The notes: generated by a model not told the origin, from the letters alone. A DNA stretch of 59,952 nucleotides from an uncultured Bacilli bacterium (GCA_934086815.1 CAKOIM010000004.1:1-59952); one strand, 5' to 3'; counted from the first letter of the stretch, positions 29,645 through 34,574 are shown. Made by a program: numbers and translations.

Positions 29645-29667
29645 AAAAAAGAAGATTATTTATCTTC
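29645..29667 (-). terminator. Terminator hairpin overlapping the stop codon of the last operon gene
   Basis: Minus strand: GAAGAT-AAATA-ATCTTC followed by 6 U. The stem includes the final codons GAA GAT AAA TAA. Confidence 0.55.
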
Positions 29668-30906
29668 CTTTAATTCAACAGTTAATTTACCTTTAAATGA
29701 TTTACCTTGATCATAATTTTGTTCATCTTGTGTACCATGTAAAGTAAATGAAACTGTGTAACTTTGTTTTGTATGTGGGGCAATTGCTATATCACTAGCT
29801 AGTGTCCCATTTGTAAATGGCGCTGTTTTAAAGTCTTGCTTATAACCACTATAATCACTCCATACTTTAACCCAGAAATTATTACTTTCAAAAGTATTAA
29901 CTACATCTATCCATTTTAAATTATAGTATAATACTTTATCTGTTTTATTTTCAATTGTAAATTTAACATCTGGCACTTTTGTATTAACATTTCCCGTTTG
30001 ATCATCCGGATATAAATCATTTAATTTAATATTATTACCATTTTCAAATATAACTACTAAAGCGGCCGTATCAAGGGATATATTATCATCACCCCCAATA
30101 ATTAATTCGCCATTTTTATCTTTTCCAGATATATAAGCACAATTACGATCACAAATACCATCTCCATCTTCATCGATATTTACATCAGGTACTCCATCCC
30201 CATTAGTATCAACATTTAAATCTGGTATCCCATCACCATTAGTATCTATATTTATATCGGGCTTACCATCTCCATCTAAGTCTATATTTATATCCGGCCA
30301 TCCATCATTATCCGTATCACAGTTTAAATCACAAACACCATTACCATCTAAATCTTGATTTATTTTATTAAATATAGTACCATCTTCTCTTTTAACATTA
30401 AATATAGCTTTTCTATTACCTTGATAATCAATATTTAAATCAGGTTTCTTATCTTTATTAGTATCACAATTAATATCACAAATACCATCACCATCTAAAT
30501 CAATGTTTAAATCAGCTATACCATCACCATTTAAATCAATATTTAAATTAGTATATCTTAAAAATTTAATTCCAGAATAAGTAGCAAAACCACAAAGAAA
30601 TAAAAATACAAGAAAAAATATAATAAATAATGGAGTATTTTTACTTTTAACAAAATTAAATATTAATTTATTACCTTCTTTTTTAACACATAAATTATAA
30701 GGCAAATACATTTCATTATCTTTATTATCAAAAGCAACATTTAATACTTTTTCAATATATTTATTTTTAATATCTAATTCTTCTTCATATAATTTATTTA
30801 AAGTATCTTTAATTAATTTATCTTGCTCATTATTTTTAAGTAACATAAACTCTTTTAAATTAATCGTATCTTTATTTCCCATATATTTATTATTATTTTT
30901 CTTCAT
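29656..30906 (-). CDS. Single-pass membrane protein with calcium-binding DxDGDGxxD repeats (thrombospondin type-3-like) and a beta-rich C-terminal domain
   Basis: 416 aa. TM segment LFIIFFLVFLFLCGFATYSGI. Nine D-x-[DN]-x-D-G/K-x-x-D repeats (e.g. DLDGDGKPDINIDTNGDGIPDLNVDTNGDGVPD) and three CDxNC pairs. Confidence 0.6.
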   Translation of the reverse strand: MKKNNNKYMGNKDTINLKEFMLLKNNEQDKLIKDTLNKLYEEELDIKNKYIEKVLNVAFDNKDNEMYLPYNLCVKKEGNKLIFNFVKSKNTPLFIIFFLVFLFLCGFATYSGIKFLRYTNLNIDLNGDGIADLNIDLDGDGICDINCDTNKDKKPDLNIDYQGNRKAIFNVKREDGTIFNKINQDLDGNGVCDLNCDTDNDGWPDINIDLDGDGKPDINIDTNGDGIPDLNVDTNGDGVPDVNIDEDGDGICDRNCAYISGKDKNGELIIGGDDNISLDTAALVVIFENGNNIKLNDLYPDDQTGNVNTKVPDVKFTIENKTDKVLYYNLKWIDVVNTFESNNFWVKVWSDYSGYKQDFKTAPFTNGTLASDIAIAPHTKQSYTVSFTLHGTQDEQNYDQGKSFKGKLTVELKEDK

Positions 30907-30923
30907 AATGCATCCTTCCTATA

Positions 30924-32009: not shown

Positions 32010-32016
32010 AATTCAC

Positions 32017-33501
32017 CTATATAGTCTTTTTAAGTCTTAATAAATAAGCTTTACATTCCGGTGTTTTATCTACGCCAAATAATTTATCTAAATATTTAAT
32101 TAAGCCATCTATTTCATCTTTAATATATGCTAAATTAAGTTGTTCAAATTTACGTAAAATTTTATGAGCAATAACATAATCTATACCTGCGACTTCTTCC
32201 CCACCACAAGCAATAAAAGCAGGAACAAATTCTTTTAATTGTTTTACTATTCTATTACCAAAAGCAAGTCTAAAGTGATCAATTACATAACGATCTAATT
32301 GAGCTACTTTTTCTAACATTTCAGCACTTACAGGATTATTATTAGCGGCATCTTTAAATAATTTATCTAAATAAGCATAACTTGTTTTAACACTTTCAGT
32401 TTCCGGAGCTTCAAAAGCTTCACATTTATCATCAATAGCAATAGGCATAGCTCTATCATATACTTTATCAGTAATCATAAATGTTGAGTCATCATTATTA
32501 ATTGTACCTATATACCACATATTTTCAGGTATCTTTAATTTACCATTTTCAAGTAATTTAGGATCACTTGGCCATACATTAGGAACTAATTCTACGGCCC
32601 AGTCTTTTTTATTAGGAAGTTCAAGAATTGATAACATTTCAGCAAAATAATATTCAACACGAGAAATATTCATTTCATCTAAAAGGGTAATATAAACTTC
32701 ATCAGTGTATTCGGCTTCATACATTTTTTCTAATATTTCTGTTTCATTAAATTTCTTTGTAAATTCATTAAAATATCCAAATATTTCGGTTGAATCTCTC
32801 CATGATGGTTGAACTGATGCTACAGTTGTTTCATTATCAATAAATGAACCAAAAGCATATGCAAGTGATGTTTTACCTGTTCCAGATATACCTTCTAAAA
32901 TAATTAATTTATTTGATGCAAATGAAGATATAAATAGACGAATTAAATTAATATCATAATAAAGATGTAATTTAGATGCCGAGTAATTTCTGAATATATC
33001 ACAAAATTCCTTTAAAGTAAAATTATTTGTAATAAGTTCTTTAGACATACCTTCATATTTATTATCAACATTACTCAATTTAAAGAATCTTGAATCACCT
33101 TCTTTTAATTCATTATTAATTGTTCCGTCTTCACTAATATTTAATTCCTTTATCTTATCAGTTTGACGTTTCAATTTAAATATTTCATTATTTAAAGAAT
33201 CAATTTCTTCAATTAACATATCTTCTTTTTTAACATTTCTTCTATATCTTATATAGGTTTTAATAGATTTATAAATAAGTAATATAATTAGACCAAAAAT
33301 AATAATTAAAAAAACAATTGATAAAATCATTATTAAAAGTCCCATTCCTGTTAAATCATTTTTATAATCACCAACAACAGTTATATAATTAACAATGTTA
33401 AACATTTGAAATAAACCTTCTCCAATACCCTTAAATATTTTTACTAATCCTTCAAATAAAGGCTCCATAAACTTTGTAAAAAATTCACCATATATACTCA
33501 T
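32017..33501 (-). CDS. Membrane-anchored McrB-family (COG1401, AAA_5) AAA+ GTPase
   Basis: 494 aa. TM segment GLLIMILSIVFLIIIFGLIILLIY, then coiled-coil-like EEIDSLNNEIFKLKRQTDKIKEL. Walker A is EGISGTGKTS and Walker B is ITLLDEMNISRVEYYFAEMLSILE. IGTINNDDST corresponds to the McrB MNTADRS signature. Confidence 0.7.
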   Translation of the reverse strand: MSIYGEFFTKFMEPLFEGLVKIFKGIGEGLFQMFNIVNYITVVGDYKNDLTGMGLLIMILSIVFLIIIFGLIILLIYKSIKTYIRYRRNVKKEDMLIEEIDSLNNEIFKLKRQTDKIKELNISEDGTINNELKEGDSRFFKLSNVDNKYEGMSKELITNNFTLKEFCDIFRNYSASKLHLYYDINLIRLFISSFASNKLIILEGISGTGKTSLAYAFGSFIDNETTVASVQPSWRDSTEIFGYFNEFTKKFNETEILEKMYEAEYTDEVYITLLDEMNISRVEYYFAEMLSILELPNKKDWAVELVPNVWPSDPKLLENGKLKIPENMWYIGTINNDDSTFMITDKVYDRAMPIAIDDKCEAFEAPETESVKTSYAYLDKLFKDAANNNPVSAEMLEKVAQLDRYVIDHFRLAFGNRIVKQLKEFVPAFIACGGEEVAGIDYVIAHKILRKFEQLNLAYIKDEIDGLIKYLDKLFGVDKTPECKAYLLRLKKTI

Positions 33502-34574
33502 TACTCTTCCTCCTTATTTTTTACAATAAAATTAATATTCATTTTCATAAAATTATTTTTATTATCTAAATTATTAATTAAAAATTCTTTTTTTACTAAA
33601 TACTTTGTATTGTCTTCAAATATAGTACTATTAATATTTGCTGTATCATAATAATCATAAATTACTTCGACTTCATTAGTTCGATAATTATTTATAATTT
33701 TTTGATAATCTACTTCTTCTTCATAAGGAATTAAAATACTAACAAATTCTTTAATATAATTATCATGAAAAAACTTACTAATATTTAATTTCTTCATTGA
33801 CTTATTTATTTTAACCATATATTTTGGCATATCTCTATTACTAATAAGCTCTTTTAAAATGTAGTAATCTATTAATGTCAATTTTAATTCACATAACTTA
33901 TCTTCATATTTTTTTAAAACTTTTTGTGTAAGTTTTTGATCAAATTCTTTTAATTCTGGTATTTCATAATCAAATACTATCTCATAATATAAAGGATTAT
34001 TACTTATCATTTTAAATGTTAATTTATATTCCTCACTATCAAATGCCTCTAAAACCTTTTTATCATTACTATTGTTTTTCTTTATTTCTTCAAACAAATC
34101 ATTAATTATATACTTATTATCTTTTATTTTAAGTATCTTAGTCTTAGCTAAATAATTAAGTAAATACTTAAACTTTTCTTTAGTATCTACTATATTTCCA
34201 TCTATAACATTACTTGCTATATCAACATAACAACTAGTACAAATAATAACTGATAATAAAAATGTTTCATTCTTTAGATCAGATAAAATACTCGTTTTAT
34301 TTTCTTCTTTAATATAGTCAATTAAAGATTTTAACACAAAATTAATATTATCATTAGCATATTCAATAGGATTGTCACGATGCTTATTATTTTGAAAATA
34401 ATATAGATTTACGTACCTTTCTAAAATTTCTGAAGCATAAGTTGTAAATTCCCTTTTATTTTGCCACATTTTATTATCTTCGACACTAATTAAATTTTCT
34501 AAAATTTTGGCATACTCTAATAAATCTTTCTCCTTTTTCTCAACGTATTTATTAATAATGCTTACACTCACCAC
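33501..34574 (-). CDS. Hypothetical cytoplasmic protein, first gene of the operon
   Basis: 357 aa with a GTG start after AGGGTGA. No recognisable motif. Its stop overlaps the next start (TAATG), with AGGAGG inside its last codons. Confidence 0.5.
   Translation of the reverse strand: MVSVSIINKYVEKKEKDLLEYAKILENLISVEDNKMWQNKREFTTYASEILERYVNLYYFQNNKHRDNPIEYANDNINFVLKSLIDYIKEENKTSILSDLKNETFLLSVIICTSCYVDIASNVIDGNIVDTKEKFKYLLNYLAKTKILKIKDNKYIINDLFEEIKKNNSNDKKVLEAFDSEEYKLTFKMISNNPLYYEIVFDYEIPELKEFDQKLTQKVLKKYEDKLCELKLTLIDYYILKELISNRDMPKYMVKINKSMKKLNISKFFHDNYIKEFVSILIPYEEEVDYQKIINNYRTNEVEVIYDYYDTANINSTIFEDNTKYLVKKEFLINNLDNKNNFMKMNINFIVKNKEEE

Follow-up and report, generated by a model that had tools for sequence, protein, structure and literature searches.

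A membrane-anchored McrB-like GTPase and a McrC homologue without a recognizable nuclease form the core of a probable envelope-associated operon in uncultured Bacilli

Introduction

McrBC is the textbook modification-dependent restriction system, in which GTP hydrolysis is stimulated by the DUF2357 domain of McrC, the plug of the McrB hexamer. What, then, might be the role of an operon that encodes a McrB-like GTPase tethered to the membrane, together with a McrC homologue in which no nuclease can be recognized? The question is raised by a stretch of DNA of 59,952 nt from an uncultured Bacilli bacterium (GCA_934086815.1 CAKOIM010000004.1:1-59952), which is referred to below as the window. It contains a cassette of four open reading frames (ORFs) on the minus strand: G1 (33501-34574), G2 (32017-33501), G3 (30924-32009) and G4 (29656-30906). 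A preliminary description of the locus had recognized four coupled minus-strand genes of 357, 494, 361 and 416 amino acids (aa), with which our ORF calls and readings of the junctions agree exactly, and had proposed two alternatives: a conflict or abortive-infection-type system, or an envelope or surface-assembly module driven by a nucleoside triphosphatase (NTPase). We favor the latter. The operon most probably (at roughly 60%, in our estimate) encodes a descendant of McrBC that has given up DNA restriction and acts instead as a GTP-driven membrane machine for the assembly of envelope or surface proteins.

Results

G2 is a membrane-anchored McrB-like GTPase of the NxD branch

The best match of G2 (494 aa; 32017..33501, minus strand) among solved structures was McrB of E. 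coli (PDB 6hz4, E 7e-5), with the Walker A, Walker B and signature motifs all aligned, which upholds its earlier description as a McrB-family AAA+ GTPase. The Pfam model AAA_5 gave 17.2 bits (E 0.005), below the gathering score of 22, a model from which the family has diverged too far; its membership of the McrB group is based on the PDB alignment and the motifs. Those previously reported, i.e. GISGTGKTS (Walker A; 32866-32892, minus strand), LLDEMN...RVEYYFAEMLSILE (Walker B) and GTINNDDS, are all present within the GTPase domain (residues ~187-460; 32122..32943, minus strand) and were invariant in 80/80 relatives examined, which suggests that G2 is active and under selection.

The motif GTINNDDS had been taken to replace the MNTADRS of McrB. 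The two are indeed aligned, and the N-N-D-D of G2 (32488-32499, minus strand) also aligns, without gaps, with the N-H-D-E (GTANHDET) of the CoCoNuT-type GTPases. A survey of the 150 best representatives among 1.84 billion proteins gave the family-wide signature GTxNxD[D/E]ST, in which D and E alternate after the Asp. This alternation excludes an NxxD reading and places G2 in the NxD branch; the motif is thus an NxD variant, and not a replacement of the canonical NxxD.

Hydropathy analysis placed a transmembrane (TM) helix at residues ~53-78 (33268..33345, minus strand), in agreement with the membrane tether proposed earlier. The helix is followed by a basic stretch and then by approximately four coiled-coil heptads (residues ~96-122, judged by the spacing of hydrophobic residues), and the basic stretch, by the positive-inside rule, indicates that the GTPase domain is cytoplasmic. 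The first ~47 residues, which are kept between the Bacilli and Clostridia classes of relatives described below, may be extracellular or may form a weak first helix of a hairpin. Family profile searches found no DNA-binding family in the N-terminus of G2, where the TM helix and the short coiled coil are located. On the whole, it is well supported that these two elements tether G2 on the cytoplasmic side of the membrane.

Two other features of the G2 family were observed: (i) the sequence SRFFKLSNVD (residues ~134-145; window positions 33066-33101) contains a motif, RF-x-(K/R)-L-x-x-(I/V)-D, which lies ~55-70 residues N-terminal of Walker A and is kept in nearly all TM-anchored relatives, irrespective of the length of the linker and of the presence of a coiled coil, and (ii) ~41 of the 150 closest representatives (P0401-P0505) have at least three, usually four, predicted TM segments joined to the same NxD GTPase domain. 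The multi-pass proteins represent a second membrane architecture, which is not mentioned in the text of the published census of these GTPases (PMC11090510).

G3 is a McrC homologue without a detectable nuclease

The product of the adjacent gene G3 (361 aa; 30924..32009, minus strand) matched Pfam DUF2357 (PF09823) with E 2.4e-12 and 47 bits (cutoff 23.3) over residues 39-143 (nt 31581-31895), and the same result was obtained for its orthologue in the Clostridia locus L067. In an alignment of 27 sequences two DUF2357 blocks (residues ~40-135 and ~193-245) were almost invariant, while the last ~115 residues (~246-361) formed a variable, charged, helical-looking tail. No conserved D...(D/E)xK motif was found in this alignment, no nuclease family was matched in profile searches, and there was no PDB sequence match to a nuclease. 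G3 therefore appears to be a McrC homologue reduced to DUF2357 and its tail, and sequence comparison upholds the preliminary description, in which no nuclease motif was seen in this gene at the McrC position.

The G2-G3 pair thus resembles canonical McrBC (PDB 6hz4, 6ut6) in the AAA+ GTPase fold, Walker A, Walker B, the N...D signature and an adjacent DUF2357 partner. It differs from McrBC in that (i) a PD-(D/E)xK nuclease is missing, (ii) a membrane anchor takes the place of the N-terminal DNA-binding domain of McrB, (iii) the signature is NxD, not NxxD, (iv) the operon contains two extra genes, and (v) the inheritance of the cassette is core-like rather than mobile.

A three-gene core is common to Bacilli and Clostridia

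A scan of one genome per species revealed at least 214 genomes with a relative of G2, and the comparisons of loci are based on the best 80 of these 214. Cultured hosts were sought and not found, all sources being metagenomic. Loci L001-L058 were found in metagenome-assembled genomes (MAGs) of RF39-like Bacilli ('uncultured Tenericutes', CAG:460, CAG:609, Candidatus Onthocola), with 60-86% identity (mostly >72%), and loci L059-L080 mostly in Clostridia MAGs of the Oscillospirales (Acutalibacteraceae, Oscillospiraceae), with 51-55% identity. The genes G2 and G3 were adjacent in 78/80 loci.

In the Bacilli the gene order is G1-G2-G3-G4. In the Clostridia loci BLAST detected G2 and G3 only; the gene family located there directly upstream of G2 (fam17) is, however, homologous to G1 (hhalign 96.3%, 271 columns), while G4 is absent. 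The conserved core thus consists of three genes, G1-G2-G3, to which G4 is added in the Bacilli alone.

The Clostridia loci differ markedly in their other genes. SipW/archaeal-type signal peptidases were present in 22/22 of them (40 copies; TIGR02228, 75-80 bits, cutoff 51.85), accompanied by several families of proteins of 200-350 aa that carry an invariant S-T-x-A-W-F signal with a near-cutoff match to TIGR04088. These proteins were considered as relatives of TasA/camelysin and rejected, since searches of PDB and Pfam revealed no link to TasA/camelysin or to solved pilins. No SipW-type peptidase was found in the 60-kb window, and among the Bacilli loci one was present within 10 kb in 3/59 only. 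In eight Bacilli loci (e.g. L019, 7651-8211) a signal peptidase I of the bacterial type (TIGR02227, 150 bits) is encoded ~5.5 kb downstream of G2; this may simply be the housekeeping LepB rather than a part of the system.

Both versions of the system were observed, ~7 kb apart, in locus L015 (8904-21503) of the RF39-like Bacilli MAG CAKOLL010000001. The series starts with Bacilli-type G1-G4, followed by a penicillin-binding protein (PBP) gene, mraY and an IS605/TnpB-like ORF. Next to this IS605-type ORF is the SipW-type version, in which a SipW-like gene precedes genes for a 308-aa protein and a G1-like protein and, cut by the end of the locus, a second paralogue of G2. The presence of both versions in one genome indicates that they are probably not redundant.

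The cassette is a variant of the CoCoPALM kind

The preliminary description could not match the operon to a described system. The Clostridia orthologues fit one that was named in 2024, CoCoPALM, defined as membrane-anchored NxD-type McrB GTPases linked to signal peptidases (Bell et al. 2024, eLife 13:RP94800; PMC11090510). This large clade of NxD GTPases is treated in a single paragraph (section 7), in which it is tied to signal peptidases and pilus assembly and its anchor is called FtsB-like, and a description is deferred to a future paper (PMC11090510). Our literature search found no such follow-up. Another paper (PMC11580942) was rejected as a link between SipW, TasA and McrB, as mcrB occurs there only in the genotype of an E. 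coli strain.

The likeness to CoCoPALM consists in an NxD GTPase with an N-terminal TM helix and coiled coil, in the adjacent McrC homologue, and in the several SipW-type genes of the orthologous Clostridia clusters, as described in PMC11090510. By contrast, the window has no SipW in its 60 kb and adds G4 and a divergently encoded 237-aa partner, the Bacilli version often lies among division and cell wall (dcw) genes, and the core gene G1 is absent from the text of that paper (PMC11090510). Since the window itself fails the association with peptidases, its assignment to the CoCoPALM clade is based on the orthology of G1-G2-G3 and not on its own context. It is well supported that this core is common to the Bacilli cassette and to the SipW-rich Clostridia clusters of the CoCoPALM type. 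Judged by these sequence comparisons, the cassette is a variant within a named, uncharacterized kind, set apart by the presence of G4 and of the 237-aa partner, by its frequent location in dcw and by the missing SipW.

The Clostridia clusters also share SipW-type peptidases and SipW-cognate signals with the SipW/TasA-type operons for matrix fibers (tapA-sipW-tasA, bsa), and a neighboring protein of the window (fam8, see below) has a similar signal motif. Unlike these operons, the window has no SipW, and neither G4, fam8 nor the putative Clostridia substrates matched TasA/camelysin. The TasA and BsaA fibers are not known to need an NTPase.

G4 is a calcium-repeat membrane protein of the Bacilli version

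The last gene of the cassette, G4 (29656..30906, minus strand), encodes a single-pass membrane protein of 416 aa. In the AlphaFold2 model (predicted local distance difference test [pLDDT] 75.8 overall), residues 12-85 fold into a small cytoplasmic N-domain and residues 91-119 form the TM helix, after which the repeat region (120-260) and a C-terminal beta-sandwich (283-413; pLDDT 81-93) follow. We counted nine 12-residue DxDxDGxxD calcium-type motifs and three CxxxC pairs in the repeat region. The predicted topology and the nine repeats are thus in accord with the earlier view of G4 as an extracytoplasmic calcium-repeat membrane protein. Its homologues fall into length classes of 416-433, 551-561, 607-698, 831 and 1027 aa, and the length scales with the number of repeats, as expected for a spacer or stalk.

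A TasA/pilin fold of the C-terminal domain was considered and rejected. Foldseek returned generic beta-sandwich matches only, all of them with E above 1e-3 and with the archaeal bundling pilin 7ueg in 12th place, hhalign comparison with the Clostridia SipW-signal families gave at most 18%, and a profile search of PDB was empty.

Inheritance of the cassette argues against a mobile defense system

The first explanation to be weighed against an envelope machine is an abortive-infection-type membrane conflict system, in which G4 or the outer part of G2 would sense phage, G2/G3 would act as the switch, and death or dormancy would follow from membrane damage or from an effector that escaped recognition, such as G1. 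McrBC ancestry agrees with this explanation, as does the fact that the nearest annotated relatives of G2 are encoded by plasmids of Deinococcus and Rhodoferax, in operons of the CoCoNuT layout (L081, L082), where a large AAA helicase is encoded together with a protein of ~490 aa, a GTPase of ~790 aa and a DUF2357 protein; the CoCoNuT-type operons are predicted defense systems. The GTPases of CoCoNuT (CnuB/CnuC with CnuH/CnuE) share ~30% overall identity with G2 as well as the blocks GISGTGKTSL, LDEMNxS..E.YFA, GT.N.D[DE].T and DK.YDRA, and the McrC homologues of these systems are also often without an active nuclease. Unlike G2, however, the CoCoNuT GTPases are soluble, have long coiled coils and measure 700-870 aa, and they always occur with a HEPN or other nuclease and a large helicase, none of which is present in the cassette.

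PADLOC likewise gave a match in favor of defense, i.e. that of G2 to the candidate PDC-M26A (E 1.4e-38). This match is limited to the GTPase region, where residues 179-298 align with positions 314-434 of the 724 in the profile, component A is the only part of PDC-M26 that was matched, and the PDC-x systems are unpublished, unvalidated candidates (PMC11811056); no mention of PDC-M26 was found in our literature search. There were no PADLOC matches for G1, G3 or G4; a nuclease, HEPN or pore domain, or any other known effector, was recognized in none of G1-G4, and a helicase in none of G1, G3 and G4. A search for a mobile carrier gave no G2 relative on viral contigs, and the phage and plasmid collections yielded matches at the level of the GTPase domain only, with no full-length relative; carriage by phages or plasmids was therefore rejected.

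The genomic position of the cassette points in the same direction. Among the Bacilli loci with enough flanking sequence, it lies just past mraZ-rsmH-ftsL-PBP in 18/36 (upstream flank), and PBP, mraY or ftsW follows it in 13/28 (downstream flank); the identities of these dcw genes were verified with NCBIfam. Approximately half of the Bacilli loci, the window among them, and all Clostridia loci are outside dcw. In the window the neighbors encode PlsC-type acyltransferases, an acyl-CoA ligase, a PAP2 phosphatase, valyl-tRNA synthetase (ValRS), a tRNA-binding protein, a radical-SAM/SPASM enzyme and an HD hydrolase, and no defense gene or mobile element was found among them.

Defense genes typically show rapid turnover. 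Pairwise identities from the same genomes revealed, in contrast, that divergence of the cassette is correlated with that of RsmH, FtsI, MraY and MraZ (Spearman rho 0.45-0.93). The median identity of G2 (83%) exceeds those of RsmH (73%), MraZ (75%) and FtsI (60%), although in the same subset of loci G2 (86%) is less conserved than MraY (90%). Since the dcw genes are core genes, the cassette follows the phylogeny of its hosts under strong purifying selection.

Two other observations could be cited for a conflict system: the exposed stalk of G4 varies in length among species, and one genome (that of L015) has two paralogous systems, one of them beside an insertion sequence (IS) element. The vertical inheritance, the one-component PADLOC match and the lack of a nuclease or known effector nevertheless make a classical mobile defense system unlikely. 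Of the two alternatives in the preliminary description, that of defense or abortive infection is thus disfavored, by conservation above RsmH, MraZ and FtsI and by housekeeping or dcw neighbors without integrases as much as by the missing full-length phage or plasmid relatives, and we regard it as unlikely. That description had also contrasted a conflict system with a cassette universally conserved at a syntenic core position and having a known envelope function: dcw placement in approximately half of the species agrees with the first part of this, and no known envelope function was found for the second.

Does the cassette encode a division factor?

The frequent location between mraZ-rsmH-ftsL-PBP and PBP-mraY-ftsW raises the possibility that the cassette is a dedicated division or septal-wall factor, whose FtsB/FtsL-like G2 anchor would join the divisome, so that the GTPase would regulate septal peptidoglycan synthesis in a lineage with reduced genomes. 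The label 'FtsB-like' given to the anchor by the census authors (PMC11090510) is in line with this idea, and the anchor did match FtsL (E 0.086), DivIC (4/19 members) and FtsL_2 (3/19). However, all of these matches are below threshold and involve a minority of members, and hhalign comparison of the anchor with the genomes' own FtsL gave a probability of 0.7%, so that FtsB/FtsL homology of the anchor is doubtful, although its layout of TM helix and coiled coil agrees with that given for CoCoPALM. Moreover, the cassette is located elsewhere in half of the Bacilli loci and in every Clostridia locus, and the context in Clostridia indicates processing of secreted proteins, not division. We therefore consider a dedicated divisomal function improbable.

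G1 is a conserved cytoplasmic subunit

G1 (357 aa, GTG start; 33501..34574, minus strand) is a soluble protein without a match in Pfam, NCBIfam or PADLOC. Its presence in both classes makes its role as a conserved cytoplasmic third subunit well supported, and it may act as an adaptor or regulator. The near-invariant residues are Tyr and Leu only, with no polar residue kept across classes, which argues against an enzyme. The AlphaFold2 model was poor (pLDDT 53.7), probably owing to the low diversity of the alignment, which was built from database matches.

Stand-alone EAL-type phosphodiesterases of cyclic di-GMP (c-di-GMP), scoring up to 121 bits against models of the DosP family, are encoded ~4 kb upstream of G2 in eight Clostridia loci (e.g. 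L065, 5062-5808), which hints at control of the Clostridia clusters by c-di-GMP. G1 itself was tried as an EAL domain: 14 of the 18 top Foldseek matches of its model were EAL domains, FimX included (best 6hq5, E 6.9e-4), and the sole PDB sequence match of the G1 profile was a designed TIM barrel (E 0.027). This low-confidence hint is rejected at the level of sequence, as hhalign gave <1% probability against a true EAL family and no member of the G1 family matched Pfam EAL; an EAL-like fold of G1 is a hint from the predicted model, nothing more.

A surface-structure regulator in which G1, as a degenerate EAL-type receptor (like FimX or LapD), would couple the level of c-di-GMP to the G2/G3 GTPase could draw on these fold matches, on the TIM barrel and on the EAL genes in Clostridia, but it is very improbable, given the unreliable model, the negative EAL comparisons, the lack of conserved polar residues and the failure to detect any c-di-GMP riboswitch or other regulatory RNA at Rfam gathering scores in the window and 14 loci.

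Neighboring genes of the Bacilli cassette

A gene for a 237-aa single-pass membrane protein (fam6; TM ~47-71; 34691..35404, plus strand) is divergent from G1. It is located directly upstream of G1 on the opposite strand, with a gap of 116 nt, in 26 Bacilli loci, and its product had no family match in profile searches. In many of these loci it is followed by a 78-aa ORF (fam5) and the PBP gene of the dcw cluster.

On the other side of the cassette, past the terminator of the operon, a separate transcription unit (27809..29377, minus strand) encodes fam8, a secreted or surface-located protein of 522 aa whose signal motif, GTFAYF, is of the SipW type. A consensus scan detected a promoter-like site of its own (TTGACT-17-TATAAT, 29431-29403). 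TIGR04088 (cutoff 19) gave 14.9 bits with the window copy, which is below the cutoff, and 14-19.7 bits in 6/10 paralogues. Such paralogues are found near the cassette in 22 Bacilli loci, and the 522-aa protein is a possible client of the system. The window contains a second paralogue (412 aa; 14802-16040, minus strand), with no domain match for either copy, and in other species up to three relatives lie in tandem in the vicinity of the cassette (L001, 13067-17775).

A gene at 26818-27489 (minus strand) encodes a 223-aa protein with an N-terminal TM segment and a long low-complexity tail rich in Glu, Lys and Pro, and relatives (~50% identity) follow the cassette in L001 and L017. Two adjoining ORFs of 1223 and 1202 aa (3470-10752, minus strand) are presumably rpoC and rpoB, from their size and arrangement; if so, they would mark, together with the ValRS gene at 40064-42595, an ordinary chromosomal segment of an organism with ~25% G+C.

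Junctions and transcription signals of the operon

The stop codon of G1 and the start codon of G2 overlap (TAATG, 33499-33503), with AAGGAGGAAGAG and its AAGGAGG ahead of the overlap. The junction between G2 and G3 (TAG-GTGAATT-ATG) has a gap of 7 nt, and that between G3 and G4 (TAA-TATAGGAAGGATGCATT-ATG) a gap of 17 nt, within which AGGAAGGA is located. Alignment with homologues (MSLSVI...) suggests that the true start of G1 is probably the second GTG, at 34571, one codon later than called.

A putative promoter of the operon (TTGCAT, a 17-nt spacer and TATAAT; 34600..34628, minus strand) was read by eye within the 116-nt divergent region common to G1 and the 237-aa gene. It is not listed by the consensus promoter scan, and its −35 hexamer agrees with the consensus in 3/6 positions.

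The hairpin and U-run noticed earlier on the last stop codon correspond to an intrinsic terminator that overlaps the end of G4 (29641..29671, minus strand). A 10-bp stem takes in the stop codon and is followed by the U-run (free energy −8.2 kcal/mol; z = −3.0; an equally good fold in 2/200 shuffles). The consensus terminator scan, which demands at least three G-C pairs, found none at this end. A hairpin and T-run are present 3′ of the G4 stop codon in most related loci, with differing sequences; the terminator is thus weak in the window, yet positionally conserved, which indicates that the operon ends at G4.

Discussion

If the operon encodes a GTP-driven envelope machine, several possible steps can be outlined. 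By analogy with McrBC, G2 would form a hexamer whose pore is plugged by the DUF2357 domain of G3, thereby stimulating GTP hydrolysis. Hydrolysis in the plugged ring would move the six coiled-coil/TM stalks, delivering force or a signal across the membrane that would drive or gate the assembly, anchoring or remodeling of surface proteins. The outer partners would be (i) SipW-processed proteins in Clostridia, and (ii) G4, possibly with fam8 proteins, in the RF39-like Bacilli. G4 would dock through its cytoplasmic domain and carry its distal beta-sandwich on a calcium-repeat stalk, the length of which varies; the 237-aa protein may also take part, and the job may be linked to wall growth or division.

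The proposed logic, in which cytoplasmic NTP hydrolysis acts through TM or stalk helices to perform work outside the membrane, resembles that of FtsEX, MacB and LolCDE. These systems have the ABC and not the AAA+ fold, no homology is claimed, and the analogy is our own.

A role at the surface is favored by the SipW-type peptidases and S-T-x-A-W-F proteins of the 22 Clostridia loci, by the EAL genes in eight of these and by the independent connection of this clade to signal peptidases and pilus assembly in the census (PMC11090510). Several observations weigh against an envelope machine. The link to pili is guilt by association, and it is valid for the Clostridia version, not for the window, where a SipW-type peptidase is missing, as it is within 10 kb in all but 3 of the 59 Bacilli loci. 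The putative substrates have no detectable relation to TasA or solved pilins, the matches of the G4 sandwich are generic, and the fold prediction for G1 is poor. The closest annotated relatives of the GTPase belong to the CoCoNuT type, a group of predicted defense systems. The cassette is placed in dcw in only approximately half of the species, and physical linkage to the dcw genes accounts partly for their co-divergence with it. Finally, the hexamer, the plug and the mechanotransmission are carried over from McrBC. Despite these points we prefer the envelope machine to the alternatives discussed above; the divisomal role and the sensing of c-di-GMP by G1 could both be seen as special cases of it.

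A more specific proposal can be made only tentatively, and we hold it to be rather doubtful: that the cassette is a GTP-driven trans-membrane mechanotransducer, i.e. a domesticated restriction motor, core and vertically inherited in the RF39-like Bacilli, which in the dcw cluster and with a calcium-repeat stalk protein would build or position envelope structures. Envelope machines would then include a new class that lacks both a nuclease and a dedicated peptidase, and that is distinct from the SipW-linked CoCoPALM and able to coexist with it in one genome.

In the cassette, a GTPase/activator pair of the McrBC type appears to have been repurposed for membrane work, with DNA binding and the nuclease lost. 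If this is true, an AAA+ GTPase would be added to the few motors of the cytoplasm that drive processes outside the membrane in envelopes of the Gram-positive type, and a function would be given to several thousand 'hypothetical' proteins of gut metagenomes. It would also call for caution against the automatic annotation of McrB/DUF2357 operons as defense systems, as PADLOC candidate models already match G2. The defined G1-G2-G3 core with its two accessory sets (SipW plus substrates, or G4) provides a basis for the design of experiments on a machine whose carriers are an abundant, uncultured group of gut bacteria.

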